Shown here piece after piece: positions 26,866-63,939 of a stretch of 64,000 bases of DNA. The notes below the pieces were generated by a model, which was not told where the DNA came from, did no database searches, and saw only the letters and a program-made list of their open reading frames with translations. Numbering within the stretch: the first letter of the stretch is position 1; each line of letters starts with the position of its first letter. This stretch comes from Escherichia phage ESCO13, in the sequence record NC_047770.1; one strand, written 5' to 3'. A program made the translations under genes and the position numbers.

Positions 26866-27065
26866 TACTCCTCCTCCTCCTCATTGAAGTCAATATCTGC
26901 AAGGAGTTCGAATTTACGGAAGTTACGACAACCTTCATAAATATAACAATCACGACAAACTGCTAGAACACTTGGGGGATATATGCCTCCCATCGGCGCG
27001 AATCGTTTTTCGTCATCATAACGGACACCAATGTCCTCATCAATTATATAGATACGGATTCTCAT
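26865..27065 (-). CDS. hypothetical protein
   Basis: 66 aa; ATGA overlap with the TelA-like gene. Confidence 0.5.
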   Translation of the reverse strand: MRIRIYIIDEDIGVRYDDEKRFAPMGGIYPPSVLAVCRDCYIYEGCRNFRKFELLADIDFNEEEEE

Positions 27066-28761: not shown

Positions 28762-28764
28762 AAC

Positions 28765-29358: not shown

Positions 29359-29372
29359 TGTTTTTCTCCTTA

Positions 29373-29810: not shown

Positions 29811-29997
29811 ATTTGCTTTCCTCGTTTTGGCTATTAATACATCTGTGTTTGAAATCTCCAGAGAAGCAATAAAGTTGCTCTCCATCTCGGTATAAACTCA
29901 CTTTACTGCCGTTGATTACGCTTGTCAATACAAAAATTACAACAAACAACCCTATTGCAAAACAAATATTTTCAAACACAACCAACAAGTATTTCAT
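29752..29997 (-). CDS. small membrane protein
   Basis: 81 aa; N-terminal TM helix; ATGA overlap with the upstream gene; 3-prime end overlaps the lipoprotein start. Confidence 0.4.
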   Translation of the reverse strand: MKYLLVVFENICFAIGLFVVIFVLTSVINGSKVSLYRDGEQLYCFSGDFKHRCINSQNEESKYEKTSPDFNWLYLFNSLRG

Positions 29998-30344
29998 TTT
30001 AAAAATACCTCATCATCAGTTTCATTATCCCAGAAGAACAAGTCCCAACCATTCGGATCATTCCATTTAGCTGCTGGAGAAGTCCATATTTGCTCGATAT
30101 CAATATTCAAAACTTCACCGTTTCGTTTTGAAACAGCTTTAGTTAATTCCCAACGGGATACAGGCTCCACTTCCCCTGAACCACTCCCACAACAAGCTAC
30201 CACATTAGGAGGCAAATTAATTGGATCTTTGGTCACGATCATAACGCTTACCCCAGGGTAAACTTTTGAAAGATAATCTAAAACGTAATCCACATCACCA
30301 GATAAATCCCAAACAAGTTCTTGAATTTCATCAAAATTACTCAT
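29994..30344 (-). CDS. hypothetical protein
   Basis: 116-aa ORF. Confidence 0.5.
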   Translation of the reverse strand: MSNFDEIQELVWDLSGDVDYVLDYLSKVYPGVSVMIVTKDPINLPPNVVACCGSGSGEVEPVSRWELTKAVSKRNGEVLNIDIEQIWTSPAAKWNDPNGWDLFFWDNETDDEVFLK

Positions 30345-30386
30345 AAGTCTCTCCTATAAAATAGCCTCCCGAAGGAGGCTCATTTA

Positions 30387-31361
30387 TTAAACAGTAGCTT
30401 CTTCTTTTTCAGGGAAGATAAAGCTTGCAATAACACCAAGAGATAATGTGCCTAGAACAATCATCAGACTTACGTTAGGGGAAATATCATGCGGGAGGAA
30501 TGACCACTTGGCATGAAGTGTTTCACCGAACGGGTGATACATAAGTTTAGCACCAACAAACACCAGAACCACAGCAACAGCTTTCTCTAAGTGAACCAGA
30601 TATTTCACAGCTACACTTAACACAAAGAAAAGTGCACGTAAACCAAGAACAGCCATCAGCATTGCAGAATAAACTAGCAGAGGTTCTTGTGTCACACCGA
30701 TCACAGCCGGAACTGAATCAAAAGAGAAGACAATATCTGTAAGCTCAATAACAAACACACAAAGAAGAGCAGGAGTTGCATATTTAATACCATTCTTAAT
30801 GGTGATGAACTTTTCACCATCCAGTGCATTGTGCACAGGCAGAACTTTACCTACTAAACGAACAGCCCAATGTTTAGAGTAATCAATATCCTCTTCTTCG
30901 TCACCACCTTTGATGATAGCCACGGCAGACCAAGCTACAATCAAACCGAACAACACTTGGACCGACCAATGAAGGTTAAACAAAGCGGTCCCTGCTGCAA
31001 CAAAAATACCTCGGAAGACAATGGCTCCTGCAATCCCCCAAAGTAGAATCTTATGTTGGAGATGTGTGCTCTTAATTCCAAAGCTTGCAAAAATTGCCAT
31101 GAACACCATTAGGTTATCTACAGAAAGACTCTTTTCCAACACATAGCCACTTAGGAAAAGCGCGGCAAACTCTTTACCATGTTCTACCCAAATGAATGCG
31201 TAATACCCTAAAGCTAAAGCAATCCAAAAAACAGACCAAAGCAAAGCAGATTTAATTCCAATTTCTTTATTCTCTTTATGACCAAAGAAATCGATACCAA
31301 TAGACAATGCTAAAATACCAACTAAAACAACTACATCAATAATTGGGAAACCGAGTTGCAT
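30387..31361 (-). CDS. terC: TerC-family integral membrane protein
   Basis: 324 aa, multi-TM; hallmark segments LEKSLSVDNL and ELTDIVFSFDSVPAV. Confidence 0.85.
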   Translation of the reverse strand: MQLGFPIIDVVVLVGILALSIGIDFFGHKENKEIGIKSALLWSVFWIALALGYYAFIWVEHGKEFAALFLSGYVLEKSLSVDNLMVFMAIFASFGIKSTHLQHKILLWGIAGAIVFRGIFVAAGTALFNLHWSVQVLFGLIVAWSAVAIIKGGDEEEDIDYSKHWAVRLVGKVLPVHNALDGEKFITIKNGIKYATPALLCVFVIELTDIVFSFDSVPAVIGVTQEPLLVYSAMLMAVLGLRALFFVLSVAVKYLVHLEKAVAVVLVFVGAKLMYHPFGETLHAKWSFLPHDISPNVSLMIVLGTLSLGVIASFIFPEKEEATV

Positions 31362-31378
31362 TCTTTTCTCCTCTCTTT

Positions 31379-31437
31379 GCGGGGAACTATTCCCCGCTTC
31401 ATGTGATATATCTTACTCTTTTTAAGAACTATGTCAA
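31379..31437 (-). promoter_or_regulatory. promoter plus 5-prime hairpin cassette upstream of terC (minus strand)
   Basis: Minus strand reads TTGACA-N16-TAAGAT-ATATCACATGAA-GCGGGGAACTATTCCCCGC then RBS GAGAGGAG and ATG; same architecture as the plus-strand cassettes at 53-63 kb. Confidence 0.55.
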
Positions 31438-31440
31438 CAC

Positions 31441-31662
31441 TTATTTTGTTGAATGAGAGGAAAAGATTCCTCGTAATACCGCCAAAATAAACGAAACACA
31501 AACCACGGTCCAGAAGGTTACTGGGACAGTGATATCTGCATGACCCATAACTTCAGCAACATAGTTGTAAGCCAGCAACAGTAACCAAGCTGGAATCAAA
31601 CTAAGCATAAAAGCAATAACAAAAAAGCTTACCACTGCAACAATACCTGCAAAAACACCCAT
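31441..31662 (-). CDS. small membrane protein
   Basis: 73 aa, two predicted TM helices. Confidence 0.5.
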   Translation of the reverse strand: MGVFAGIVAVVSFFVIAFMLSLIPAWLLLLAYNYVAEVMGHADITVPVTFWTVVCVSFILAVLRGIFSSHSTK

Positions 31663-31674
31663 ACTAATCTCCTC

Positions 31675-32148
31675 TTAAAGTTTATAAATAGTCACATCGT
31701 GACCTGTTTTTACTAAAGTTTCTTCAATCATCACTTGGATGATAGCCCAATTACCTCCGGCATGTCCCGCTCCAATCATAGGTAAACCGATCTTACATTT
31801 TTGGTCACGGAGAAGCAAATCATTAGCCATAGCTATTAGTGCATCGTAAAGTGCATCATAGTCCAACTGACGACCTTTAGCATTGTATCCGTAACGGTAT
31901 TGCCCGTATAGATTATATACCAAAGGGTCTGATTGTTCGTCTGGCACCCCTAAACTAAAAGAACCTAACTTACTTTGATCACCAGCCATTGTGTCTAAAT
32001 CTGCCGCATATGCATAAGGGAATGCTCGTTTAATTTGCGGAGCAATTCCTGCTCCCATATTACACATACAATTGCAACAATGAGCAATAACAGTTACTTC
32101 ACCTGCTTTAGCGGCATCAATAAGATTACCTGTTTTCATTTTAAGCAT
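31675..32148 (-). CDS. macro-domain protein (ADP-ribose binding/processing)
   Basis: Start moved to the ATG at 32148 (RBS AAGGAG); GNLIDAAKAGEVTVIAHCCNCMCNMGAGIAPQIKRAFP matches the macro-domain N-terminal signature. Confidence 0.7.
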   Translation of the reverse strand: MLKMKTGNLIDAAKAGEVTVIAHCCNCMCNMGAGIAPQIKRAFPYAYAADLDTMAGDQSKLGSFSLGVPDEQSDPLVYNLYGQYRYGYNAKGRQLDYDALYDALIAMANDLLLRDQKCKIGLPMIGAGHAGGNWAIIQVMIEETLVKTGHDVTIYKL

Positions 32149-32161
32149 TTTTAGCTCCTTA

Positions 32162-32989
32162 TTACAGAATGTGTTGTTTTGTGTAACGATCCAAGAATTC
32201 AAAGTTTTCAGCATACTTTGAAATTCGGTTGTAACCTTCTCCCAAACATCCGAAGAAAAGTTGCTCTACATAGTAGTGTGGCAATTGGCTAAGAATGATT
32301 TTGAAGTCTTCGTGATTTTGGCCCATAAGATACTTAATAGGACGAACAAGACACTGTGCATCACGTTCTTCATTAATCATTTTAACAAACGCTTCTGGTG
32401 TATTGATGTAGTTAAAATTCAGTTTAGCTTCAGTATCTGCTTGATTACCTTCATATTTTGCAAAATACAAGAAGTAAACATCATTTTTAACTTGATTTTC
32501 ATCAAGAATCTCAATCAGTTTGTCTTCATGAGTTCCGGTGATATTTACATCATCAATGAACACAAGCTTCTTATCACCCCAGAATTCTTTGTTGCAGTAG
32601 AATGTATCCCCATCAATAAGTTTCTTACGACTAGCTTTATCCAAGAAACCATAATCGTTGATATAGCTAACTTTACGATGAATAATATCCAGTTCTGCTG
32701 AACGACCTTGATCATATTGTGCTTGCAACATATTAAAGTAATTAATAAAATGATCTGTCATCATTGTTGCAGCATTGTGCACATGGTTATAAGGAGAAGG
32801 GATGATAACAAATTGTTCCCCAATATGTTTCATTGCCACTTGAGCAAAAAACTGAAGTGCCAATTCTTTACCCATACGACGCGCAGCTTGGTTACTACCA
32901 AATTTCAATTTTGAATAGTCTTTGATATCAAAAGTAGCAGTTTCCAGGTCATCAAATTTATTTGCAAAAATTTGAGTTTGATTACGCAT
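32162..32989 (-). CDS. phosphoribosyltransferase-like protein
   Basis: 275 aa; PRPP-binding-like motif KKLVFIDDVNITGTHEDKL. Confidence 0.5.
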   Translation of the reverse strand: MRNQTQIFANKFDDLETATFDIKDYSKLKFGSNQAARRMGKELALQFFAQVAMKHIGEQFVIIPSPYNHVHNAATMMTDHFINYFNMLQAQYDQGRSAELDIIHRKVSYINDYGFLDKASRKKLIDGDTFYCNKEFWGDKKLVFIDDVNITGTHEDKLIEILDENQVKNDVYFLYFAKYEGNQADTEAKLNFNYINTPEAFVKMINEERDAQCLVRPIKYLMGQNHEDFKIILSQLPHYYVEQLFFGCLGEGYNRISKYAENFEFLDRYTKQHIL

Positions 32990-33638: not shown

Positions 33639-33639
33639 A

Positions 33640-53241: not shown

Positions 53242-53299
53242 TTGACGTTCGCCAGGTGGCGGCATAATATTTACCACGTAGGGCGGCAATGGTGCCGCT
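53242..53299 (+). promoter_or_regulatory. promoter-hairpin cassette 1
   Basis: TTGACG-N17-TAATAT-TTACCACG-TAGGGCGGCAATGGTGCCGCT. Confidence 0.6.
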
Positions 53300-53319
53300 C
53301 ATTATTTGGAGTTAAAATC

Positions 53320-53517
53320 ATGGCAACATTGCACATTGTGGCGAAAGCTGGACAAATAAACGTGGTAGTAAACGGTTTTACTGAGTTCAGTCATCCCCAG
53401 GATGATCATGAAACGGTTTTATCTTTCATTGATTCACTGTTAGAAATGGGAGTAATTACAGAAGACCAGCACGGTACAAAATGCAAGCGCGTTAATCAAA
53501 TTGCAGGAATAGAATAA
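53320..53517 (+). CDS. small hypothetical protein
   Basis: 65 aa MATLHIVAKAGQ...; ATG after RBS GGAG, not the upstream TTG of the track ORF. Confidence 0.55.
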   Translation: MATLHIVAKAGQINVVVNGFTEFSHPQDDHETVLSFIDSLLEMGVITEDQHGTKCKRVNQIAGIE

Positions 53518-53523
53518 AAACTA

Positions 53524-53582
53524 TTGACAACAAACAACAACCTGATAAGATGTATCACATAGGGCGGGAAGTGGTTTCCCGC
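53524..53582 (+). promoter_or_regulatory. promoter-hairpin cassette 2
   Basis: TTGACA-N16-TAAGAT-GTATCACA-TAGGGCGGGAAGTGGTTTCCCGC. Confidence 0.6.
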
Positions 53583-53607
53583 TCGTAACAGAAGAGAGAT
53601 TATCATC

Positions 53608-53880
53608 ATGGCATCATATAGCGCAACAATGATCGTAGCTGGCACAACTGGTAAACCTATGAGCGGTGGCGGATCTTTCGCTAATATCAATATTGACGGG
53701 CGTTTATCCCTGGACGCAGCGATCGCTATTGCACGGGAAACATTTAAGAAAGAATGTAATTTCAACAAGCAAGATTATCTCGGTTTCGCTATTGAAAAAA
53801 CCGCGCGCTTTGTTGATTATAAAAGCCCGAAAATGGTTGATACTACACTAAAAGCGCAAGATGTAGCGTTTTTGCTTTAA
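53608..53880 (+). CDS. small hypothetical protein
   Basis: 90 aa; RBS AGAAGAGAG. Confidence 0.55.
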   Translation: MASYSATMIVAGTTGKPMSGGGSFANINIDGRLSLDAAIAIARETFKKECNFNKQDYLGFAIEKTARFVDYKSPKMVDTTLKAQDVAFLL

Positions 53881-53883
53881 GGC

Positions 53884-53939
53884 TTGACATTAACGAATAA
53901 TTTGTTAATATGTTACATAAAGCGGGAATAGTTCCCGCT
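53884..53939 (+). promoter_or_regulatory. promoter-hairpin cassette 3
   Basis: TTGACA-N16-TAATAT-GTTACATA-AAGCGGGAATAGTTCCCGCT. Confidence 0.6.
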
Positions 53940-53956
53940 ATTTGTAAGGTGGTAGA

Positions 53957-54214
53957 ATGTTTTACATCAAATTAAAAGGTCACGTGATCGCGTTCAAAGA
54001 TAACGCTTTTTACAGATTAGCAAAATATGCGTTAATACATCCCCACTATGTTTATATAAGGAGGCGTGATGAAATAAATATCTTTGATCAAACAACATGC
54101 GAGAACATCGAGATCCGCAAGGTTGGCGTACGTGATTATCGTACATCTTTCTACCCTTGCAAGGATTCAGCAAGTCTTTTTAAAGTATGCCAATTGTTGA
54201 AAAAAGGTGGTTAA
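53957..54214 (+). CDS. small hypothetical protein
   Basis: 85 aa; RBS AAGGTGG. Confidence 0.55.
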   Translation: MFYIKLKGHVIAFKDNAFYRLAKYALIHPHYVYIRRRDEINIFDQTTCENIEIRKVGVRDYRTSFYPCKDSASLFKVCQLLKKGG

Positions 54215-54215
54215 T

Positions 54216-54773
54216 ATGGGCCGCGAATATGTGATCCAGTCTTGGGTAAAACATGAAGCAGATGATCCGCGCATCATTCCCGATCATCTTATCGATGAAT
54301 CCACGGGATATAGCGGTGAGCAAATAGGTAACAGATTAGCACGTAGTAACGGCAACGTAAAAGCGCGTTATGTGCGCCCTGGCTGGCTGGCAAATGGTAA
54401 CGCTGATTTATCCAGTGCGGAAGATGCGAGCGACGGCGCGAAAGATAATCCTTTGTACAAAGTTGATCCGGCTTTTCGTGTCCTGGATGAATACCCCAGC
54501 AAGATAGCGGCGCTCGATCAGGCCCTGGAAAGTAAGCGCATCACCTGGACCGCTTACAACATGGCAAAAAACGTACTTGATGGTAAATTGATTCAAGCTG
54601 AAAGAAAATTAGCCAAAATTGCAGCCATAGCCCAGGAGGAAGACGAGGAGACAACGGAAGAGGAAGAGTACGAAGAGATCCCGCCGTTGTTGTGTGTTGA
54701 TGCTTTTCCTGATTATCAGCCGACAGAGGAAGAAAAAAGGATCGCACTAGAAAACTTTGAAAATAGTCTTTGA
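54216..54773 (+). CDS. hypothetical protein with acidic C-terminal region
   Basis: 185 aa from the ATG at 54216 (RBS AAAGGTGG); second cistron of cassette 3; EEDEETTEEEEYEE stretch. Confidence 0.55.
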   Translation: MGREYVIQSWVKHEADDPRIIPDHLIDESTGYSGEQIGNRLARSNGNVKARYVRPGWLANGNADLSSAEDASDGAKDNPLYKVDPAFRVLDEYPSKIAALDQALESKRITWTAYNMAKNVLDGKLIQAERKLAKIAAIAQEEDEETTEEEEYEEIPPLLCVDAFPDYQPTEEEKRIALENFENSL

Positions 54774-54827
54774 CATATCGCCGCCACTGGCATAATATTT
54801 ACCACGTAGGGCGGCAATGGTGCCGCT
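54770..54827 (+). promoter_or_regulatory. promoter-hairpin cassette 4
   Basis: TTGACA (overlapping the upstream stop)-N17-TAATAT-TTACCACG-TAGGGCGGCAATGGTGCCGCT; near-identical to cassette 1. Confidence 0.6.
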
Positions 54828-54855
54828 CATAGTGAAATTATGCAAGAGGCTTACA

Positions 54856-54951
54856 ATGATTAATAAAGAAAATAGCTTGACGGTTGGAACGATTAACGCT
54901 ATCATTCTAGCCGTTCCATTTTGGATTGTAGTAGCGGCTATTATTTTCTAA
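54856..54951 (+). CDS. hydrophobic micro-protein (31 aa)
   Basis: MINKENSLTVGTINAIILAVPFWIVVAAIIF; RBS AGAGG 6 nt upstream. Confidence 0.4.
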   Translation: MINKENSLTVGTINAIILAVPFWIVVAAIIF

Positions 54952-54959
54952 AAATATTC

Positions 54960-55020
54960 TTGACAACGTTTTTTAATCTGATAAGATGTATCACATAGGG
55001 CGGCGGAATACTTCCCCGCC
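54960..55020 (+). promoter_or_regulatory. promoter-hairpin cassette 5
   Basis: TTGACA-N16-TAAGAT-GTATCACA-TAGGGCGGCGGAATACTTCCCCGCC. Confidence 0.6.
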
Positions 55021-55041
55021 AAAACAAAAAAGGGTAACACA

Positions 55042-55404
55042 ATGAGCAAGCAAATCAATACTATCATGTTAAACCTGGTATCCTTCCGCGATGATATGAA
55101 AAATTTACCACGTGAAACGGTTGATATTCATGTTTCAGCTTATCGCGCCCTTATTGACATGTTACCGCTAAAACGTGATCAACATGCCGCTAACATGATG
55201 CTTAATGCTATGCTTAAAAAGATGATTCAAACGGATCTCATCCTGGCGTATGAGTATCAAGGGCGCTTATATGCTACTTACAACAAGGCGGTACCTGGTC
55301 TGGGAAGTACCGAAGAGTTGCACGGCTTAAACCTGGATCAGAACACTTGGGATAGTATGCGCCGCGTTATGGTATGGGCCGAAAGCGGTAAAATTTACGA
55401 ATAA
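55042..55404 (+). CDS. hypothetical protein
   Basis: 120 aa. Confidence 0.55.
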   Translation: MSKQINTIMLNLVSFRDDMKNLPRETVDIHVSAYRALIDMLPLKRDQHAANMMLNAMLKKMIQTDLILAYEYQGRLYATYNKAVPGLGSTEELHGLNLDQNTWDSMRRVMVWAESGKIYE

Positions 55405-55409
55405 AACGG

Positions 55410-55466
55410 TTGACACTGTTTAAAATTCTGGTATAGTTTATCACGTAGGGCGGCAATGGTGCCGCC
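55410..55466 (+). promoter_or_regulatory. promoter-hairpin cassette 6
   Basis: TTGACA-N16-TATAGT-TTATCACG-TAGGGCGGCAATGGTGCCGCC. Confidence 0.6.
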
Positions 55467-55486
55467 AACAATAAAAGGTTAACATC

Positions 55487-55666
55487 ATGACTATCATTGC
55501 AAAAACTGAGATTATAGGTTTAGATTCGATCCTCCTGGCTTATGAGGAAACTTTAAAAATGTATGTAGTGACCTATGGTGATTATGTGCGTGAATACGAA
55601 TACATTGATCTTGCTTTCGAATGTTACATTCGCCAGGTCAATAAAGCCTATAACGATTATCGTTAA
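55487..55666 (+). CDS. small hypothetical protein (59 aa)
   Basis: MTIIAKTEIIGLDSILLAYEETLKMYVVTYGDY...; below the track cutoff. Confidence 0.45.
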   Translation: MTIIAKTEIIGLDSILLAYEETLKMYVVTYGDYVREYEYIDLAFECYIRQVNKAYNDYR

Positions 55667-55685
55667 AAGTTTTAGTCTTATACTA

Positions 55686-55738
55686 TTGACAATGAGTGAT
55701 AGTATAAGCATAATAACTTTTATCGGGAATACTTCCCA
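55686..55738 (+). promoter_or_regulatory. promoter-hairpin cassette 7 (variant)
   Basis: TTGACA-N17-CATAAT ... CGGGAATACTTCCC. Confidence 0.5.
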
Positions 55739-55763
55739 CTAACCAAAAAAAGAGAGTAATATC

Positions 55764-56129
55764 ATGGCTATTAATATCAATGTTTCCTCTTATGCTACCC
55801 TGGCTGACACGGCTAAAATTGAATTATCCAGCATTGAGGCGGTGCATATTAGCGCCCGTCGTTGGTTTCAACAGTCCTACGGTAACACATATTTTTCTTT
55901 AATGGTTGACGTTGAGATCGGCGGTAAACTGATCGAGGTGGTTAACGTTCCGTTTCAATATGGTTATGGTGATCATTTTGATACCGTCGCCCTGGAAGAA
56001 TTTAGCAAGGTTATTAATATGGAAGGTAAAGAGTTTTCACGCGGCGCGTATCTTTCCCGTTTTTGCCGTGACAATGGGATCACTGTATACAGTCATGCAA
56101 GCGATGTTAAACGTAAAAAAGATTTATAA
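55764..56129 (+). CDS. hypothetical protein
   Basis: 121 aa; RBS AGAGAG. Confidence 0.55.
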   Translation: MAININVSSYATLADTAKIELSSIEAVHISARRWFQQSYGNTYFSLMVDVEIGGKLIEVVNVPFQYGYGDHFDTVALEEFSKVINMEGKEFSRGAYLSRFCRDNGITVYSHASDVKRKKDL

Positions 56130-56135
56130 AAAGCA

Positions 56136-56194
56136 TTGACAGCACGAATAAAAAGAGTAAACTGTATTACATAGAGAGCGGGAACACTTCCCGC
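56136..56194 (+). promoter_or_regulatory. promoter-hairpin cassette 8
   Basis: TTGACA-N16-TAAACT-GTATTACA-TAGAGAGCGGGAACACTTCCCGC. Confidence 0.55.
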
Positions 56195-56218
56195 CTCACT
56201 GAAAAAGAGATTAACATC

Positions 56219-56458
56219 ATGGCTAAATCAAAAATGTTCTTAGGTCACAAAAATAAAACTCATTGGAATGTAAGCCTTTGGATTAATAACGACGAATCAT
56301 TATATCGGTTGGCGAAAGAATTTATCGCCGCTAATACTAATCGTAATGATGCTGCCCGTGATATGATGTTATTCCTGGAACAAACTGGACAAGATAAAAC
56401 TCCAGACGGTTTCAAGTATAGTAAAACTGCAATCCGTGCCGCGATGGTTGGAATGTAA
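56219..56458 (+). CDS. small hypothetical protein
   Basis: 79 aa. Confidence 0.55.
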   Translation: MAKSKMFLGHKNKTHWNVSLWINNDESLYRLAKEFIAANTNRNDAARDMMLFLEQTGQDKTPDGFKYSKTAIRAAMVGM

Positions 56459-56467
56459 TAAAAACAG

Positions 56468-56526
56468 TTGACAACGTTTAAAATTAGTGTAAGATGTATC
56501 ACATAGGGCGGGAAATGGTTTCCCGC
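56468..56526 (+). promoter_or_regulatory. promoter-hairpin cassette 9
   Basis: TTGACA-N16-TAAGAT-GTATCACA-TAGGGCGGGAAATGGTTTCCCGC. Confidence 0.6.
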
Positions 56527-56549
56527 TCACAACAGAGAGATTAAAGATT

Positions 56550-56777
56550 ATGGCTATCAATATTGTTCGCGTATCCGGCACCGTTGGCTATTCCCAGGTT
56601 GTAGCAGTTGTAACAAACAAAAAGATTAATGATGTATGTGAGATCTTGAATAAGTGGGCTATTGCTAATTTTGGAGAATATGCAAGCGTCGAGTACATCG
56701 AATCCTACCAGGTGCCGACCATCAGCCTAACCGATCTCAACGTTGATCGCCTGTTATGCCTGGATGAATTAAACTAA
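56550..56777 (+). CDS. small hypothetical protein
   Basis: 75 aa. Confidence 0.55.
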   Translation: MAINIVRVSGTVGYSQVVAVVTNKKINDVCEILNKWAIANFGEYASVEYIESYQVPTISLTDLNVDRLLCLDELN

Positions 56778-56784
56778 AATAATA

Positions 56785-56841
56785 TTGACAAGATAACTAA
56801 AATCAGTAAAATGTAATGCATAGGGCGGCAATAGTGCCGCT
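56785..56841 (+). promoter_or_regulatory. promoter-hairpin cassette 10
   Basis: TTGACA-N16-TAAAAT-GTAATGCA-TAGGGCGGCAATAGTGCCGCT. Confidence 0.6.
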
Positions 56842-56863
56842 CATAGTAAGAGGGATTATCAAA

Positions 56864-57079
56864 ATGGCTAATATCCGCACACTGTTAAAAAATGCAAGTC
56901 AAGTTTTATTTTCAGATGACGAGTATTTCAATAAAGACATTACAGGCGTGAAAAATTTAAAAGACGTTAAGGATGTAATAGGTATTCGAGGATCTTTACG
57001 TAAAGGTGACTACTACGGCAATAAAGTACAATATAAATTAAATCAGTCTTATGATTTTACTTTGACAATTATTTCATAA
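56864..57079 (+). CDS. small hypothetical protein
   Basis: 71 aa from MANIRTLLK (RBS AAGAGGGA). Confidence 0.55.
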   Translation: MANIRTLLKNASQVLFSDDEYFNKDITGVKNLKDVKDVIGIRGSLRKGDYYGNKVQYKLNQSYDFTLTIIS

Positions 57080-57085
57080 AACCGC

Positions 57086-57147
57086 TTGCAATCTTAATAA
57101 AATAAAGTAAACTGTATTACATCAAGGCGGCGGAATGGTCCACCGCC
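57086..57147 (+). promoter_or_regulatory. promoter-hairpin cassette 11
   Basis: TTGCAA-N16-TAAACT-GTATTACA-TCAAGGCGGCGGAATGGTCCACCGCC. Confidence 0.55.
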
Positions 57148-57171
57148 TAACAAAGAGAAGAGGAAAACATC

Positions 57172-57339
57172 ATGATCACTTTCGCTACCCGTGAAGCCGC
57201 TCGCAACGTTGCCCGTAAAGTTAACGCCGCCAACCTGGGCGCTACGCTTAAAGCCCCTGTAAAAGATGAATCAGGAAAATGGATCTTCCCTGGTCTGCGT
57301 CATGCTGACAAGTTAGGTACTTTAAGCCTTAAAAAATAA
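57172..57339 (+). CDS. small basic protein (55 aa)
   Basis: MITFATREAARNVARKVNAANLGATLKAPVKDESGKWIFPGLRHADKLGTLSLKK; below the track cutoff. Confidence 0.45.
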   Translation: MITFATREAARNVARKVNAANLGATLKAPVKDESGKWIFPGLRHADKLGTLSLKK

Positions 57340-57342
57340 TCG

Positions 57343-57380
57343 TTGACTTTTCGTTATAGCGCCTTATAATGGGCGCTATA
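57343..57380 (+). promoter_or_regulatory. consensus promoter TTGACT-N16-TATAAT inside a 9-bp inverted repeat
   Basis: TATAGCGCC-TTATAATG-GGCGCTATA (57355-57380) brackets the -10 hexamer; operator-like. Confidence 0.5.
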
Positions 57381-57413
57381 GAGAAGAGAAACCACTACTA
57401 ACAAGGAAACATC

Positions 57414-57635
57414 ATGATCACTTTCGCTATTGTCGCCGTTGTCGCTGGTCAGGTTTACATAAACGATACATTCACCACAGAAGACAAGGCCGCAGGAGAC
57501 ATAACCGCCGTTTACAATGAGTGCAAGGCAGTAGAAAGGATGTTAGCGCCTTGTATGCTAATGAGTGAACGCCAGGACGGGATAACAGTATTTACTAACA
57601 TTGAAACAGGGTACCAAATGGTAGTAACAAAATAA
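57414..57635 (+). CDS. small hypothetical protein
   Basis: 73 aa; shares the MITFA N-terminus with the preceding ORF. Confidence 0.55.
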   Translation: MITFAIVAVVAGQVYINDTFTTEDKAAGDITAVYNECKAVERMLAPCMLMSERQDGITVFTNIETGYQMVVTK

Positions 57636-57638
57636 AGC

Positions 57639-57695
57639 TTGACACGGATTTAATTTTTAGTAAACTGTTACACGTAGGGCGGGAATAGTTCCCGC
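57639..57695 (+). promoter_or_regulatory. promoter-hairpin cassette 13
   Basis: TTGACA-N16-TAAACT-GTTACACG-TAGGGCGGGAATAGTTCCCGC. Confidence 0.6.
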
Positions 57696-57714
57696 TCAAA
57701 AAGAGAGAAAGACC

Positions 57715-58068
57715 ATGAAAGCACAAAATGCAATTAAAGAGTACATCCTTGCCGCTATCGATTTTAATGATTACGGTATTACAACCGAAAAAGAGAAGAT
57801 CGCGGAATTGATGCGCCGTTTTAATTCCGAGTACTGGTACCCTGATAACCAATCACGTTTTAATTATAGTATTGTTAAAGCACTTGCATCATGGTTACAA
57901 GGCTTGCCATCAGATATCAATATCGCTTTCGAATATTGGGAAATTGATCGCCTGTTAACATCCTGGGGATACATTAAAGAGAATAGCAGCGATGATAAAA
58001 TCCAACGAGAAAGGGAAAATTATTGGCTTTATATTGCAGGCGTGATCCTTGCTTGCTCTTATGAATGA
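57715..58068 (+). CDS. hypothetical protein
   Basis: 117 aa. Confidence 0.55.
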   Translation: MKAQNAIKEYILAAIDFNDYGITTEKEKIAELMRRFNSEYWYPDNQSRFNYSIVKALASWLQGLPSDINIAFEYWEIDRLLTSWGYIKENSSDDKIQRERENYWLYIAGVILACSYE

Positions 58069-58074
58069 TAAACC

Positions 58075-58128
58075 TTGACAATTTTACAAAACAGTTTAAA
58101 TTAACAATATAGCGGCAATGGTGCCGCT
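58075..58128 (+). promoter_or_regulatory. promoter-hairpin cassette 14
   Basis: TTGACA-N16-TAAATT-AACAATAT-AGCGGCAATGGTGCCGCT. Confidence 0.55.
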
Positions 58129-58147
58129 CATATGAAGAGGAAACAAA

Positions 58148-58294
58148 ATGAATACATCTAATCGCGCAGAAAAAATTCAATCTTCCAAGATCCGCAAGGC
58201 CTGGAACGAGGAAGTGATCCGCAAAGGCGACAAGCGCAATAAAACAAAGCGCGGGAAGAGTGACAAATATAATTGGATGGATTTAGAGGATTAA
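58148..58294 (+). CDS. small basic protein (48 aa)
   Basis: MNTSNRAEKIQSSKIRKAWNEEVIRKGDKRNKTKRGKSDKYNWMDLED; RBS GAAGAGGAA. Confidence 0.45.
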   Translation: MNTSNRAEKIQSSKIRKAWNEEVIRKGDKRNKTKRGKSDKYNWMDLED

Positions 58295-58303
58295 CATAAC
58301 AAG

Positions 58304-58329
58304 GGGCGCACCAAGCGCCCTTTCTTTTT
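58304..58329 (+). terminator. rho-independent terminator
   Basis: GGGCGC-ACCAA-GCGCCC followed by TTTCTTTTT. Confidence 0.6.
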
Positions 58330-58350
58330 ACATGTAGAGGATAAACAAAG

Positions 58351-58536
58351 ATGACTTTAAGCGAGCTTAAAACAGCCTACAACGCAACGTTAAAAATAGC
58401 CGTGCGTTACCGTGACGAATACGGTTTTATTGCGCAGGGCGTGATCCTGGGCTTTTCTGACGATGGTTTGATCTATGTTGATGCACATCACAATAAGGTT
58501 AAACCTGAAAACGTCATTAGCATAAAATATCTTTAA
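58351..58536 (+). CDS. small hypothetical protein
   Basis: 61 aa; RBS GAGGA; no own promoter seen (read-through?). Confidence 0.5.
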   Translation: MTLSELKTAYNATLKIAVRYRDEYGFIAQGVILGFSDDGLIYVDAHHNKVKPENVISIKYL

Positions 58537-58542
58537 AAGTGG

Positions 58543-58600
58543 TTGACACCATAACCGGACCTGTTAAACTGTATTACATCAGGCGGGGAATAGTTCCCAC
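58543..58600 (+). promoter_or_regulatory. promoter-hairpin cassette 15
   Basis: TTGACA-N16-TAAACT-GTATTACA-TCAGGCGGGGAATAGTTCCCACC. Confidence 0.55.
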
Positions 58601-58620
58601 CATACAAAAAGGTAAATATT

Positions 58621-58827
58621 ATGATCACCGCAAAACAAGAAAAAATCATTATCGACGTTGCAGCCGTTGCCGCTATTGCTATTATTGGATCTTATTATGA
58701 CACCGCGCGTCCTTCCTCCTTGCATGAGGTCGCCGCCGTTGCATCAGTTGGCGTACTGTTTTACGTTGGTAAACGCTATTTATCACCAATGATTAACAAG
58801 CTGACACCGTGGAAAAATAAAGGTTGA
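58621..58827 (+). CDS. small membrane protein
   Basis: 68 aa; hydrophobic stretches IIIDVAAVAAIAIIGSYY and VAAVASVGVLFYV. Confidence 0.55.
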   Translation: MITAKQEKIIIDVAAVAAIAIIGSYYDTARPSSLHEVAAVASVGVLFYVGKRYLSPMINKLTPWKNKG

Positions 58828-58883
58828 TCCTGTTTTATATTGTGTTATAGTTATCGTGTAGGGCGGCAATGGTGCCGCGCCCT
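58824..58883 (+). promoter_or_regulatory. promoter-hairpin cassette 16
   Basis: TTGATC (overlapping the upstream stop)-N16-TATAGT-TATCGTG-TAGGGCGGCAATGGTGCCGCGCCC. Confidence 0.55.
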
Positions 58884-58898
58884 TTTGAGGATGCAATC

Positions 58899-59183
58899 AT
58901 GAGTAAAGCTAACACCGTGCTAATGTTTTCCCTGATTAATGATTCCGCTTACTTGTCCAACATGACGCAGGAGGGTAACACATTAACGGCAACATTCACC
59001 AATAAGCTTGACCGGGTGATCATCGTCTCACTGAAAACAGTTAGTAAAGGCTTTTACTCGTTAGCTTATCATTGGATCACCGATACCGATGAGACAAGCC
59101 AGGACTATAGCACCCCTTTCCCTGAATCAATGGCACGGGAGGTCATCGCCGCCGTTGTAAATGATGGTTTGTTTACTGCATAA
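58899..59183 (+). CDS. hypothetical protein
   Basis: 94 aa from MSKANTVLMFSL. Confidence 0.55.
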   Translation: MSKANTVLMFSLINDSAYLSNMTQEGNTLTATFTNKLDRVIIVSLKTVSKGFYSLAYHWITDTDETSQDYSTPFPESMAREVIAAVVNDGLFTA

Positions 59184-59201
59184 AATAATTTAGAAAAAGG
59201 C

Positions 59202-59258
59202 TTGCAATCATTTTGAGATAGTGTATATTTAATTCATAGGGCGGCGGGAATAGTTCCC
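59202..59258 (+). promoter_or_regulatory. promoter-hairpin cassette 17
   Basis: TTGCAA-N16-TATATT-TAATTCA-TAGGGCGGCGGGAATAGTTCCC. Confidence 0.55.
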
Positions 59259-59281
59259 AAAGCAAACGAGAGGATTACACG

Positions 59282-59401
59282 ATGAGCAAGTACACAGTAG
59301 AATACACGGTAGAAAATCCGGCAGTATCCGAAGGTAAAAAGATGACATTTGCCATCAGTATAATCGCTTTCGTTATCACTATCTTATCAATCATCTTATA
59401 A
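59282..59401 (+). CDS. micro-protein with C-terminal TM helix (39 aa)
   Basis: MSKYTVEYTVENPAVSEGKKMTFAISIIAFVITILSIIL; RBS GAGAGG. Confidence 0.4.
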   Translation: MSKYTVEYTVENPAVSEGKKMTFAISIIAFVITILSIIL

Positions 59402-59411
59402 GGTGCGTACT

Positions 59412-59573
59412 ATGAAAACAACAGACATTATCAAAGAGATCGCCCTTGCCGCTGACGTTGAGATCGAGGAAGTGATCGCGCTCAACCTTACAGAAAACGA
59501 TCTGCGCAACTATGAAGCGGAAAGCGTGAAAGCAAGCGGCGCGGTCCTGGCATATAATCCGGCTAACAAGTAA
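59412..59573 (+). CDS. small acidic protein (53 aa)
   Basis: MKTTDIIKEIALAADVEIEEVIALNLTENDLRNYEAESVKASGAVLAYNPANK; RBS AAGGTG. Confidence 0.4.
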   Translation: MKTTDIIKEIALAADVEIEEVIALNLTENDLRNYEAESVKASGAVLAYNPANK

Positions 59574-59582
59574 GGGGATAAC

Positions 59583-59693
59583 ATGAATCCGAAAGATATG
59601 CAAGCATGGAAAGGGTACGACGATCTAAGCGCCTTGCGCAATAAGTCAAGCCGTAACCTTAGACGGTTGGAAGCAAAGAAAAAGAAAAAATAG
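59583..59693 (+). CDS. small basic protein (36 aa)
   Basis: MNPKDMQAWKGYDDLSALRNKSSRNLRRLEAKKKKK; RBS AAGGGGA. Confidence 0.35.
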   Translation: MNPKDMQAWKGYDDLSALRNKSSRNLRRLEAKKKKK

Positions 59694-59694
59694 T

Positions 59695-59751
59695 TTGACA
59701 AGTCCGCCTAGTCTGATAATATGTATCTTGTAGGGCGGCAATGGTGCCGCT
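59695..59751 (+). promoter_or_regulatory. promoter-hairpin cassette 18
   Basis: TTGACA-N16-TAATAT-GTATCTTG-TAGGGCGGCAATGGTGCCGCT. Confidence 0.6.
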
Positions 59752-59771
59752 CACAAGAAGAGAGAAAAATC

Positions 59772-60056
59772 ATGAAAATCACAAAAAGCCTAACTAATTA
59801 TGCAGCACGTCGCGGATTATGTTTAACCGTTGAAAACTTAGGGAAAGAAGACTTTTTGTGTTTTTGGGAGCTTGAAAATGATTGCGAGTGGATGTTTTCT
59901 TATTCTATCTGCGAAGATCAAAACGGTTGTTTGTTAACCTGGCGCGGTAATATCTATTTACCGGAAGAAATTAAAGAAGAGTTACCAGGTACGATCATGA
60001 CAGAGAGACAGCTTAAGGAAGTGATCAATTTTGTAGGGCAAAACATTAAAAAATAA
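59772..60056 (+). CDS. Cys-rich hypothetical protein
   Basis: 94 aa from MKITKSLTNYAARRG; several Cys. Confidence 0.55.
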   Translation: MKITKSLTNYAARRGLCLTVENLGKEDFLCFWELENDCEWMFSYSICEDQNGCLLTWRGNIYLPEEIKEELPGTIMTERQLKEVINFVGQNIKK

Positions 60057-60057
60057 T

Positions 60058-60119
60058 TTGACAGTAGGCAAACAACGTAGTAAAGTTTATTACATAGAGC
60101 GGCGGAATGGTCCACCGCT
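60058..60119 (+). promoter_or_regulatory. promoter-hairpin cassette 19
   Basis: TTGACA-N17-TAAAGT-TTATTACA-TAGAGCGGCGGAATGGTCCACCGCT. Confidence 0.55.
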
Positions 60120-60141
60120 CACAACAGAAGAGAAACAAATC

Positions 60142-60312
60142 ATGATCCCGACTATGTTTTATGTATCGCGCAAAGGTCACAATATTTTTTGGTCTGAAGA
60201 TTTAAATGAAGCTATGACGTTTGCCCGTGATCGTGTTGCTATCGGTGGCGTTAATATCACCGTGACCGATGAAAACGGCATTGAATACTATAACGGCGAT
60301 GATGAAGAGTAA
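60142..60312 (+). CDS. small hypothetical protein (56 aa)
   Basis: MIPTMFYVSRKGHNIFWSEDLNEAMTFARDRVAIGGVNITVTDENGIEYYNGDDEE. Confidence 0.5.
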   Translation: MIPTMFYVSRKGHNIFWSEDLNEAMTFARDRVAIGGVNITVTDENGIEYYNGDDEE

Positions 60313-60318
60313 TCAACA

Positions 60319-60338
60319 AGGCGGGATTAATCCCGCCT
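60319..60338 (+). other. perfect 20-bp palindrome AGGCGGGATTAATCCCGCCT (promoter-less intercistronic hairpin)
   Basis: Preceded by TAATCAACAA; no -35/-10 pair and no U-tract. Confidence 0.5.
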
Positions 60339-60356
60339 ATATTAAAGGGTAATACA

Positions 60357-60494
60357 ATGAAAACTTTCAACGCAACAGCCTCGACAATTGGTTATATTAT
60401 TACAGTGCAAGCCGTGGATCTGGTAGCAGCAGCAAACAAGATTAAAAAGATGATCCCGCCAGGTAGTGAATTTTCCGTTTGGGAAGTAAAATAA
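60357..60494 (+). CDS. small hypothetical protein (45 aa)
   Basis: MKTFNATASTIGYIITVQAVDLVAAANKIKKMIPPGSEFSVWEVK; RBS AAAGGG. Confidence 0.4.
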   Translation: MKTFNATASTIGYIITVQAVDLVAAANKIKKMIPPGSEFSVWEVK

Positions 60495-60497
60495 ACC

Positions 60498-60559
60498 TTG
60501 ACAATAATTTGTTATCTGATAAAGTGTATTACGTAGGGCGGGGCAATGGTGCAACGCCC
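60498..60559 (+). promoter_or_regulatory. promoter-hairpin cassette 21
   Basis: TTGACA-N16-TAAAGT-GTATTACG-TAGGGCGGGGCAATGGTGCAACGCCC. Confidence 0.55.
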
Positions 60560-60577
60560 ATTAATGAGGGTAGAATC

Positions 60578-60682
60578 ATGTTAGAGAAAATTTTCACGGT
60601 TGTAATAGTGGGCCTGGCGTTATCGGTTGGAGTGGTTGCAACTATGGCTAACATGATCCTATCTTCCCACGGTATCGGTTAA
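60578..60682 (+). CDS. hydrophobic micro-protein (34 aa)
   Basis: MLEKIFTVVIVGLALSVGVVATMANMILSSHGIG; RBS GAGGG. Confidence 0.4.
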   Translation: MLEKIFTVVIVGLALSVGVVATMANMILSSHGIG

Positions 60683-60692
60683 GGTGAAACAA

Positions 60693-60908
60693 ATGATCAC
60701 GAACAAAACAGGCAAAACGGAATTTTTACGCGGCTTACAAGTTGGTAAGCCTGAGATCTGGCATTGCACGAAGTCCGCGCATAATGAAATGAAAGATTTC
60801 ACCGCTACTTTACAACGTGTTAAAATATCTATTACGCAGAAAAAAGCCTTATTAGTAGTAGAAAACGAGATCCCGCAAACCATTATTATTGTCGAGCGTA
60901 CAGCATGA
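60693..60908 (+). CDS. small hypothetical protein
   Basis: 71 aa from MITNKTGKTE (RBS AAGGTGA). Confidence 0.5.
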   Translation: MITNKTGKTEFLRGLQVGKPEIWHCTKSAHNEMKDFTATLQRVKISITQKKALLVVENEIPQTIIIVERTA

Positions 60909-61291
60909 AAACAGAAATCATTAACGAAATCATCAACGGCTATAAAGAAGCCTTTATTTTTGCTGAATCAGCAAGGGATCATGAAGGTAATTTTATAGAT
61001 GACATGACTGATTATGATTTTTCAGATCAAGCCCATCAACGGATCGCCCAGGATGTAACAGCCTTTATTAATGCTAATCTTGCCGCTATCTCTGAGGCAA
61101 TGAGCGACGGCGCAACAGCCAACCAGATCGGGAATGATTTACATTTTACCCGTAACGGTCACGGCGTAGGATTTTGGGATCGCCCTGAAATATACACCAC
61201 TAACACGGCGAACCGCCTAACAAATGCAGCTAAGTTTATGCCGAACGTGTCGGCTTACATTGGTGAAGATAATTTGATTTATATTGAATAA
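60905..61291 (+). CDS. hypothetical protein
   Basis: 128 aa; ATGA overlap. Confidence 0.55.
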   Translation: MKTEIINEIINGYKEAFIFAESARDHEGNFIDDMTDYDFSDQAHQRIAQDVTAFINANLAAISEAMSDGATANQIGNDLHFTRNGHGVGFWDRPEIYTTNTANRLTNAAKFMPNVSAYIGEDNLIYIE

Positions 61292-61297
61292 AAAGTA

Positions 61298-61354
61298 TTG
61301 ACACAGATCGCCAGTGTGCTAATATTTACCACGTAGGGCGGCAATGGTGCCGCC
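61298..61354 (+). promoter_or_regulatory. promoter-hairpin cassette 22
   Basis: TTGACA-N16-TAATAT-TTACCACG-TAGGGCGGCAATGGTGCCGCC. Confidence 0.6.
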
Positions 61355-61372
61355 GATAATGAGGAAAATAAA

Positions 61373-61672
61373 ATGGAAACTATCGCTATTGTTACCGTAG
61401 AAAAACTGGTTGTTGGTGATGTGTTCGCGTTAATGGTGCCTAACAGCAGCAAACTGGGCGCTTATGAAGTGATGGACCATAAAAATGAATCATTTGGCGA
61501 CGGTTGCACAATGGCGGTAAAATCCTTAAAGGATGGAATCATCCGCCAGGCTAACTGGCACAAAGGGAATCAAGTCGGTTTAATATCAGCTAATTTCTTG
61601 CCAGAAGAGCAAACGTTAGACCAACTATCAGGCGGTAAGACGTTAGCCGAACTACTGGAAACAGCGATCTAA
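61373..61672 (+). CDS. hypothetical protein
   Basis: 99 aa; RBS GAGGAAAA. Confidence 0.55.
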   Translation: METIAIVTVEKLVVGDVFALMVPNSSKLGAYEVMDHKNESFGDGCTMAVKSLKDGIIRQANWHKGNQVGLISANFLPEEQTLDQLSGGKTLAELLETAI

Positions 61673-61680
61673 TCAACAAA

Positions 61681-61696
61681 GGGGCGGCAACGCCCC
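61681..61696 (+). other. promoter-less intercistronic hairpin GGGGCG-GCAA-CGCCCC
   Basis: Preceded by TAATCAACAAA; no U-tract. Confidence 0.45.
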
Positions 61697-61716
61697 ACAT
61701 CAGAAAGGAAAAGATT

Positions 61717-61953
61717 ATGAGTATTGCAACAGTATTAAACGCCGTTAAAACCGCTGAATCATCCGGCTTGCATGTTGAGCTTATAGATCAACCAGGTGGC
61801 GATCTCCTTGTCCAGGTTTACCCGCCGAAAGTAGGGGATGATTATTATTGGGCTTATTCTGATACGTTCGAACAAGTAGACACGAAAGCGATCACGGCTT
61901 TTATTTTAAAAGCTATTGAAGAAAATAACTTTCATCATAACATCAATCAATAA
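61717..61953 (+). CDS. small hypothetical protein
   Basis: 78 aa. Confidence 0.55.
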   Translation: MSIATVLNAVKTAESSGLHVELIDQPGGDLLVQVYPPKVGDDYYWAYSDTFEQVDTKAITAFILKAIEENNFHHNINQ

Positions 61954-61962
61954 ACCATAAGC

Positions 61963-61978
61963 GGGGCGGTAACGCCCC
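61963..61978 (+). other. promoter-less intercistronic hairpin GGGGCG-GTAA-CGCCCC
   Basis: Same hairpin family as 61681-61696. Confidence 0.45.
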
Positions 61979-62007
61979 ATTAAACGCAATAGGAAGAGGA
62001 TAGACGC

Positions 62008-62292
62008 ATGAAAAACATGATCGCAGTAGTTGCCCTAGTTGTTGGTATTAACGCGCCTGTACTGGCTAATGAGTTGCCAGAATCCATCACGTTAACCGAT
62101 ATCAACGCAGTGAACCGGATCGGTGTTAATTATCGCCTATGCCTTGCCGCTAAAACTTTCCAGGATGGCACAACAGAGTACTACGGATTCGAGGGTATCC
62201 GGTGCGGTGAGCTTGCACGCGACCTTAAGGAAGATCCAGACCTTGAGGCCATACCGATGACCGTAAACGGTAAAGCTTACGTAAGCCGCTAA
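62008..62292 (+). CDS. secreted/periplasmic small protein
   Basis: 94 aa; signal peptide MKNMIAVVALVVGINAPVLA. Confidence 0.55.
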   Translation: MKNMIAVVALVVGINAPVLANELPESITLTDINAVNRIGVNYRLCLAAKTFQDGTTEYYGFEGIRCGELARDLKEDPDLEAIPMTVNGKAYVSR

Positions 62293-62294
62293 CC

Positions 62295-62429
62295 ATGAGA
62301 AAGGTAATCATCACAATGGGGATCGTAGTAGCAACGCTGGCGCTTATTCCCTTCATGGTTGAACATGTGCTGATCAATGTTGTCCTGGTAGTCAGCGACC
62401 TATTAGAAACGGTTGGCAACTGGTTTTAA
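62295..62429 (+). CDS. hydrophobic micro-protein (44 aa)
   Basis: MRKVIITMGIVVATLALIPFMVEHVLINVVLVVSDLLETVGNWF; starts 2 nt after the upstream stop. Confidence 0.4.
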   Translation: MRKVIITMGIVVATLALIPFMVEHVLINVVLVVSDLLETVGNWF

Positions 62430-62438
62430 GATAAATAA

Positions 62439-62468
62439 ACAGGGCTTGCAATAGTCCTGTTTTTTGTT
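62439..62468 (+). terminator. rho-independent terminator
   Basis: ACAGGGC-TTGCAATA-GTCCTGT followed by TTTTTTGTT. Confidence 0.55.
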
Positions 62469-62606
62469 ATACTTATTGAACGGGCGGCACCTGGGAGCAG
62501 GGGAAGATAATCACCGGAAGACCCCGCTATATATATTGATAGCTAACACCTATCAAACAACAAAACATCAAAGAGATAAACTATCAAATCTTTACAATCC
62601 CACCTA

Positions 62607-62664
62607 TTGACACCGGATCACGCTTACATTATTATTTATCACGTAGGGCGGGAATGTTTCCCAC
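62607..62664 (+). promoter_or_regulatory. promoter-hairpin cassette 24
   Basis: TTGACA-N17-TATTAT-TTATCACG-TAGGGCGGGAATGTTTCCCAC. Confidence 0.55.
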
Positions 62665-62683
62665 CTGATTTAGGAGTCATATC

Positions 62684-63924: not shown

Positions 63925-63939
63925 TTGACAACAAAACAA

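Follow-up and report, generated by a model that had tools for sequence, protein, structure and literature searches.

A sigma-70-type promoter and predicted leader hairpin in front of terC of Escherichia phage ESCO13, and their relation to a distant small-ORF array

Introduction

Directly upstream of terC, Escherichia phage ESCO13 (NC_047770.1) carries on the minus strand what reads as a promoter followed by a hairpin. The original prediction, made for a 64,000-nucleotide stretch of this genome ("the window", to which coordinates refer unless stated otherwise), held that this is the same cassette as the one repeated in front of an array of small ORFs on the opposite strand, that the cassette is a mobile regulatory unit, and that it places terC in the early regulon of the array. 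Does the terC copy belong to that family, is it mobile, and what does its hairpin do? Promoter and stem-loop elements (PeSLs) are known from T4-like phages, where a sigma-70 early promoter with an AT-rich upstream stretch and an adjacent G/C stem-loop is repeated before ORFans; their stem-loop may precede the promoter, sit inside it or overlap it, or come immediately ahead of the start site, and the elements act as promoters and terminators/attenuators and recombine into mini-circles (PMC2839356; PMC4122927).

Results

Read on the minus strand from 31437 to 31359, the region in front of terC is TTGACA-N16-TAAGAT-ATATCACATGAA-GCGGGGAA/TAG/TTCCCCGC-AAAGAGAGGAGAAAAGA-ATG (Table 1). The predicted succession of promoter, hairpin and start codon is thus present, in the orientation of the gene and directly in front of it, and the gene was correctly named, its product being a TerC-family membrane protein by its Pfam match. 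Two details had to be amended: the loop had been written as CTA, which is the plus-strand reading (TAG on the minus strand), and the 6 nt AAAAGA between the Shine-Dalgarno (SD) region and ATG had been left out. Because the stop codon of the upstream 73-aa ORF (31443-31441) ends 3 nt before the -35 hexamer, the cassette occupies the entire 79-nt intergenic gap. The TAAGAT version of the -10 hexamer also occurs in array copies 53524, 54960 and 56468, and the discriminator, ATATCAC followed by A, compares with GTATCAC-A in the array consensus. In the 22 nt upstream of -35, AT content was 68% for the terC copy and 74% on average for the array (60% for the window); by composition, this stretch resembles an UP element. 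The leader is only about 40 nt long and contains a single hairpin, which would span about +6 to +24 from the predicted start and has a predicted folding energy of about -14.5 kcal/mol (z -4.3); AAAGAG, and no U-tract, follows directly 3′ of it, and in the centroid fold the SD region is unpaired and free of the hairpin. A leaderless upstream ORF of 23 codons (31402-31331, minus strand) is possible, in which the predicted start A opens CAC-AUG-AAG... and which would cross the hairpin and overlap the terC start. As its AUG, kept in phiWec186, is replaced by AUA in alia and in the array consensus, this ORF is probably incidental.

Whether the likeness to the array goes beyond that expected of any two promoters was assessed in several ways. 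A listing by regular expression gave 16 plus-strand sites of the same layout between 53.5 and 62.6 kb; all of them precede a small ORF and have a hairpin of -9 to -16 kcal/mol a few nt past the expected start. The likeness exceeds chance, as the pattern TTGACA-N15-19-TANNNT-N5-25-GCGGGG was seen three times where 0.02 occurrences were expected. Covariance model R1, trained on five array copies only and run with filters off, detected 18 plus-strand copies in the window (53242-62670) and, with 34.1 bits (E about 1e-5), the copy at terC, which was the sole significant match outside the array and on the minus strand of the 64-kb window and, in the one genome scanned as a whole (the 150-kb MH160766.1), again the sole significant match outside the array. 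The terC cassette shares 50/64 positions (78%) with copy 54960 and 49/64 with copy 56468, compared with 32-41/64 for hairpin-less consensus promoters, and it fits the layout of the family: TTGACA, N16-17, TAnnnT, 9-12 nt of discriminator and start region, GC-rich hairpin, purine-rich SD, ATG. Judged by these scores and identities, the terC cassette is a diverged member of the small-ORF array cassette family, and the sameness originally claimed is borne out. The distance of 20 kb given at the time comes to about 22 kb when counted to the nearest array copy, which starts at 53242.

With the broader model R2 (39 training sequences), 20 copies in the window scored at least 43.5 bits and everything else at most 22.6 bits; the score of terC is not independent here, since terC was in the training set. 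In the rest of MH160766.1, outside the window, R2 found one further, diverged solo copy at 40326-40257 (minus strand), TTGACT-N16-TATAAT-N12-TGGGAGGA-GGTGAG-TCCTCCCA-SD-ATG, which heads a 136-aa ORF downstream of thymidylate synthase, so terC is not the sole gene outside the array with the cassette design. Scanning for the apical hexamer flanked by an uninterrupted stem proved too strict and recovered the GCAAUGGUGC subtype only. The motif CUCACAACAGAAGAG recurs just after the hairpin in many copies (examples in Table 1) and is missing from the terC copy; we take it to bear a faint likeness to the boxA of nut/rrn antitermination sites. The array also contains, twice and in near-identical form, a terminator-like bidirectional hairpin, AAGGGGCGCACCAAGCGCCCTT with a T-run (58301-58323 and 63938-63958), which is not of the cassette type.

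Table 1. Positions of the features discussed; coordinates are those of the window unless another phage is named.
Feature	Position	Strand	Basis or remark
-35 hexamer TTGACA, terC promoter	31432..31437	-	sequence
-10 hexamer TAAGAT, 16-nt spacer	31410..31415	-	sequence
Discriminator ATATCAC and predicted start site A (31402)	31402..31409	-	start deduced from spacing
Leader hairpin GCGGGGAA-UAG-UUCCCCGC, perfect 8 bp	31379..31397	-	sequence, fold prediction
Purine-rich SD region GAGAGGAG and 6-nt spacer AAAAGA, then ATG	31362..31375	-	sequence
terC start codon ATG	31361-31359	-	sequence
terC, 324 aa	30387..31361	-	Pfam TerC PF03741, E 3e-40
3′ hairpin AGCCUCC-UUCG-GGAGGCU, then AUUUUAU	30363..30380	-	6 nt after terC stop codon
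HAD-like hydrolase (weak match)	32982-33659	-	terC neighborhood
ComF-like PRTase	32162-32989	-	terC neighborhood
Macro domain	31675-32214	-	terC neighborhood
SprT-like protein	28171-28761	-	terC neighborhood
TelA	27062-28174	-	terC neighborhood
Array, 19 cassette copies, each before a small ORF	53242..62670	+	pattern listing, covariance models
Array starts, first ten	53242, 53524, 53884, 54770, 54960, 55410, 56136, 56468, 56785, 57086	+	
Array starts, last nine	57639, 58075, 58543, 58824, 59695, 60058, 60498, 61298, 62607	+	
Degenerate cassette copy	59202		array region
CUCACAACAGAAGAG examples	53575-53590, 56520-56535, 60110-60125; Paula 8675-8690		
FV3 cassettes	882, 4379, 4654, 6020 of FV3		Vequintavirus
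phAPEC6 cassette	12117 of phAPEC6		jumbo Asteriusvirus; same loop, other stem

The window corresponds to about 84.5-149 kb of the 149.8-kb genome of Escherichia phage vB_EcoM-Ro121lw (MH160766.1), and the two sequences show 100% identity across 4 kb at terC. The terC region is at least 95% identical in about 45 other Phapecoctavirus genomes (phAPEC8-like, Stephanstirmvirinae), and it is syntenic and stable, at least 80% of it being covered in 63/72 records. Sequences upstream of terC were retrieved for ESCO5, tuntematon, phiWec186, alia (Justusliebigvirus), Klebsiella phage phi1_175008 and four IMG/VR contigs, and all retrieved relatives had a consensus-like promoter and a hairpin at a constant distance from ATG. 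The stems themselves differed (GCGGGGAA/TTCCCCGC; GCGGGGA/TCCCCGC; GCGGAGGA/TCCTCCGC; AAGAGGGGG/CTCCCTCTT; AAGGGAGAG/CTCTCCCTT; AAGAGGGAG/CTCCCTCTT), as did the loops (UAG, GUGGU, UUG, AUAGG). In an alignment of eight sequences, which like the other covariation alignment was model-guided, 95.3% of the cells were paired and 5/8 stem pairs had changed on both sides; the covariation score was reached by 0/500 shuffles, and pairing fell to 53-66% when the register was slid. In the N4-like phage GAP52, which also carries terC, nothing comparable was present upstream of the gene. The fixed position in every Stephanstirmvirinae relative examined, together with the compensatory stem changes, argues that the terC copy is old, positionally fixed and under selection for pairing, and not a recent insertion; on this evidence, the cassette has stood before terC since before the phage genera split.

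The array presents a different picture, so that the mobility originally claimed for the cassette applies at most to the family, for which the support is indirect, and not to the terC copy. The array is hyperplastic: at least 80% of the stretch from 53 to 63 kb was covered in only 20/286 matching phage records. Near-identical cassettes head small ORFs in the Justusliebigvirus Paula (up to 72.8 bits) and in the Vequintavirus FV3 (67.4 and 62 bits), and phAPEC6 has one cassette with an unchanged loop on another stem (Table 1). As the small ORFs alongside the FV3 and phAPEC6 cassettes are shared too, with 70-87% nucleotide identity, modules of ORF and cassette appear to have been exchanged between unrelated coliphages. 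When the array of the window was compared with Paula, FV3 and phAPEC6, 28/50 ends of homology blocks were no more than 20 nt away from a cassette (random points: 10.6±2.9), an enrichment that is to be expected under any gene-wise mosaicism because the cassettes fill the intergenic gaps. The single indel relative to Ro121lw comprises 315 bp (window 57394/57407; MH160766.1 142045-142360), MH160766.1 having an extra small ORF between the promoter and the next ORF; in this comparison, the junction lies in the leader and not at repeated cassette sequence, and the indel, which is located in the array, yields no direct sign of a deletion between cassettes. The array thus looks much like the PeSL-rich hyperplastic regions of T4-like phages, with cassette-mediated recombination remaining putative.

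The nature of the hairpin was examined with 41 covariance-model hits, drawn from the window, from Paula and from the terC orthologs; nearly all are cassette copies, and at least one is a hairpin-less promoter. Of the cells, 95.4% were paired, 6/8 pairs were compensatory, and 0/500 shuffles matched the observed covariation. There were 17 G·U/U·G pairs, many of which derive from a single inherited variant (GGGCGG...CCGCUC) and are thus not independent events, versus 3 A·C/C·A. As G·U is tolerated in sense RNA only, this bias favors a transcribed hairpin. Every cassette copy is oriented as its gene. Among 44 copies, about half have a stem whose GC core begins 9-12 nt past the -10 hexamer, which with a standard 7-nt discriminator corresponds to about +3 to +6; in most of the remaining copies, the predicted fold merely lengthens the stem upstream into untranscribed bases. 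Counted from the predicted start, the unpaired 5′ stretch would measure 5 nt in terC and about 3 nt in most of the array copies. None of the copies has a U-tract behind the stem. This absence and the excess of G·U over A·C point to a hairpin formed in the sense RNA, at about +4 to +25. The apical loop A-AUrG-U was found in about 30/44 copies, even with a different lower stem, and the 5′ flank CAyrTAGG was likewise constant where the stem differs.

Two known kinds of element were considered for the terC leader and rejected. An intrinsic (Rho-independent) terminator is not apparent on either strand, since no U-tract follows the stem, which is succeeded by AAAGAGAGG on the sense and by TTCATGTG on the antisense strand; the terminator scan did not list the hairpin 5′ of terC. 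The yybP-ykoY (Mn2+)/PRE riboswitch is found ahead of E. coli alx and of many further genes for TerC proteins, and the terC leader shares with it the position of a structured 5′ leader before a TerC-family gene. Unlike it, this short leader with its lone hairpin has no Rfam match: none of the yybP-ykoY/alx type was obtained between 30800 and 32000 at E up to 10, nor one to yybP-ykoY at gathering score in the whole window, so it is not taken for such a riboswitch.

At its other end, terC is followed by a hairpin with a UUCG tetraloop and a U-rich tail (Table 1), whose arms have undergone compensatory changes among relatives (AAGCCCC..GGGGCUU in alia, AACCUCC..GGAGGUU in phiWec186); it probably acts as a terminator or as a stabilizer of the 3′ end. 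With this conserved terminator-like hairpin after the gene, terC reads as a self-contained transcription unit of promoter, 5′ hairpin, gene and putative terminator, lying within a long run of genes for replication and nucleotide metabolism that all point leftward. The immediate surroundings (27062-34245, minus strand) form a Ter-type gene neighborhood (Table 1), similar to the Ter/TelA stress clusters of bacteria, which include a pathway for a nucleotide-like metabolite. In phage GAP52, terC is linked with TerD-like genes.

Discussion

The cassette is probably, if only by a little, a near-consensus sigma-70-type promoter joined to a leader RNA hairpin and a strong SD, with the hairpin serving as 5′ stabilizer and insulator of the transcript. 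We infer this stabilizing role, and likewise the start site and the early timing. Host sigma-70 RNA polymerase would start at about 31402, and the nascent RNA would at once fold into a stable hairpin beside its 5′ end, the first about 25 nt of the leader being this GC-rich hairpin. The stem-loop would then protect the transcript against 5′-end-dependent decay through RppH/RNase E and would keep sequence upstream of the ribosome-binding site from affecting that site; the outcome would be strong, promoter-autonomous expression. Such a stabilizer is in keeping with a hairpin position that is fixed, a stem that covaries freely, the missing U-tract and the strand bias. In E. coli, 5′ hairpins of the ompA type hinder attack by RppH and by 5′-end-dependent RNase E. 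Emory, Bouvet and Belasco reportedly showed in 1992 that a stem-loop of the ompA 5′ UTR type stabilizes mRNA, and 5 unpaired 5′ nt, the number predicted for terC, is said to sit at the edge of that protection, for which the hairpin should lie about 0-4 unpaired nt from the 5′ end. In common with these stabilizers, the cassette has a stable hairpin, by prediction a few nt from the 5′ end and separate from the ribosome-binding site, whose sequence can change provided that the bases still pair. It differs in that its start is a predicted one and its stabilizing effect an expected one, and in that its loop is more conserved than needed.

This last difference keeps a second model alive. The constancy of the apical loop and the CAyrTAGG flank exceeds what a stabilizer would need, and it fits recognition by a factor or homogenization among copies. 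The hairpin could accordingly be the binding site, as RNA or DNA, of a specific trans-acting phage or host factor that co-regulates all cassette-headed genes, for instance by shut-off of early messages, repression of translation or nut/boxB-like modification of the polymerase; we regard this as unlikely, though worth keeping in mind. Although the lower stem covaries, loop and flank do not change with it, and the copy of the jumbo phage (GGGGAGAA-TAG-TTCTCCCC) is no exception; array hairpins are near-identical across genera, and the CUCACAACAGAAGAG motif recurs after them. The terC orthologs, however, keep a hairpin despite different loops and totally different stems, and since both drift while the hairpin persists, structure rather than sequence appears to be what is maintained there; the identity among array copies is explained equally well by recombination or gene conversion. 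Nor has a candidate binding protein emerged: none of the 10 ORFs between 45.8 and 52.1 kb had an informative PHROG match or resembled a T4 Srd-like or otherwise informative early protein in PHROGs, the matches being to unknown-function families, an ATPase and an HNH endonuclease. In the same rightward early block, a 486-aa ORF (49506-50966, plus strand) matches PHROG endonuclease and HNH endonuclease families and is a possible homing endonuclease. As regards lambda nut/boxB, we take the likeness to lie in a short hairpin with conserved loop just downstream of early promoters; for the cassette, in contrast, no boxA, N-like protein or antitermination need was identified. A bolder form of the factor model, which we consider improbable, makes the hairpin (A-AUrG-U loop, CAyrUAGG flank) the operator of a dedicated RNA-binding regulator and thus a portable "early regulon tag", into which terC would have been wired at the subfamily ancestor. 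If true, such a tag would be common to unrelated coliphage lineages (Stephanstirmvirinae, Vequintavirinae and the jumbo Asteriusvirus).

Just as improbable, in our judgment, is that the cassette is a PeSL in the strict sense (Arbiol et al. 2010), that is, an attenuator of upstream transcription at the level of DNA or termination and a patch of homology for recombination, with the terC copy as an insertion relic. The resemblance is considerable, PeSLs being the known elements that come nearest to the cassette. Both have a near-consensus sigma-70 promoter with AT-rich upstream sequence, a G/C-rich stem-loop, SD and start codon; many copies stand in dense arrays before small ORFans in a hyperplastic region, homology-block ends and module borders cluster at the cassettes, and modules are common to unrelated phages. 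The window even holds PeSL-like subclasses: at 57343-57380 (plus strand), TTGACT-N16-TATAAT with an inverted repeat, ATAGCGCC/GGCGCTAT, spanning the -10, and at 52863-52835 (minus strand), TTGACA-AGCCCAGGGATCGGGCT-TATACT with a hairpin inside the spacer. In the cassettes, however, the stem-loop does not vary in position and is found at one fixed site within the transcribed leader; they lack a U-tract, and their strand bias speaks for sense RNA. The carriers are Stephanstirmvirinae (the window being of a Phapecoctavirus), Vequintavirinae and one Asteriusvirus, not T4-like phages. As for the terC copy, its surroundings are conserved and syntenic and do not belong to the hyperplastic region; the one indel relative to Ro121lw is not bounded by cassette repeats, and the clustering of block ends is confounded by the way cassettes fill intergenic gaps.

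That the hairpin terminates antisense transcription is hardly credible: the Paula record (LR865361.1) does mark several leader hairpins as "terminator" on the strand opposite the genes (e.g., 2400-2424, 2852-2871 and 5723-5746), and the terC hairpin, a perfect palindrome, folds equally well on both strands, but the antisense strand has no U-tract either (TTCATGTGATAT), A·C mismatches would be frequent on it, with each of the 17 sense G·U pairs becoming one, and no antisense promoters are evident. These features of LR865361.1 are likely mis-annotations by an automatic terminator finder.

The terC unit may also be set beside the morons, reportedly described by Juhala and Hendrix in 2000 as autonomous promoter-gene-terminator units inside phage operons. 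Like them, terC has its own promoter and a terminator-like 3′ hairpin inside a co-directional block. Typical descriptions of morons concern temperate phages, and their presence varies, whereas the terC unit belongs to a virulent myovirus and is retained from genus to genus. That terC belongs to the same early regulon as the array, as was originally proposed, is a reasonable inference from the shared sigma-70-type promoter and leader design only.

No description of the cassette was found in the accessible literature, including by a literal search for the hairpin sequences, and for phAPEC8, rV5 and the Stephanstirmvirinae what was found on promoters and stem-loops consists of generic promoter or terminator lists only. 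The promoter table of the rV5 paper does list such promoters and, as it ends 7 nt past the -10 hexamer, misses the hairpin. Taken for itself, the terC cassette is a real and fairly ordinary regulatory element that opens no long-standing question. As a member of its family, it carries the promoter and stem-loop idea beyond the T4-like phages, the only ones for which it had been described, into phAPEC8/phi92-like and rV5-like coliphages, where the hairpin would be part of the message, and it provides a covariation-supported leader hairpin long kept before one auxiliary gene. It would also correct the database annotation of these hairpins as antisense terminators. Strong promoter, 5′ hairpin and SD would together make a compact, standardized expression module, and the cassette may serve as a marker for early genes in these therapeutic phage groups.
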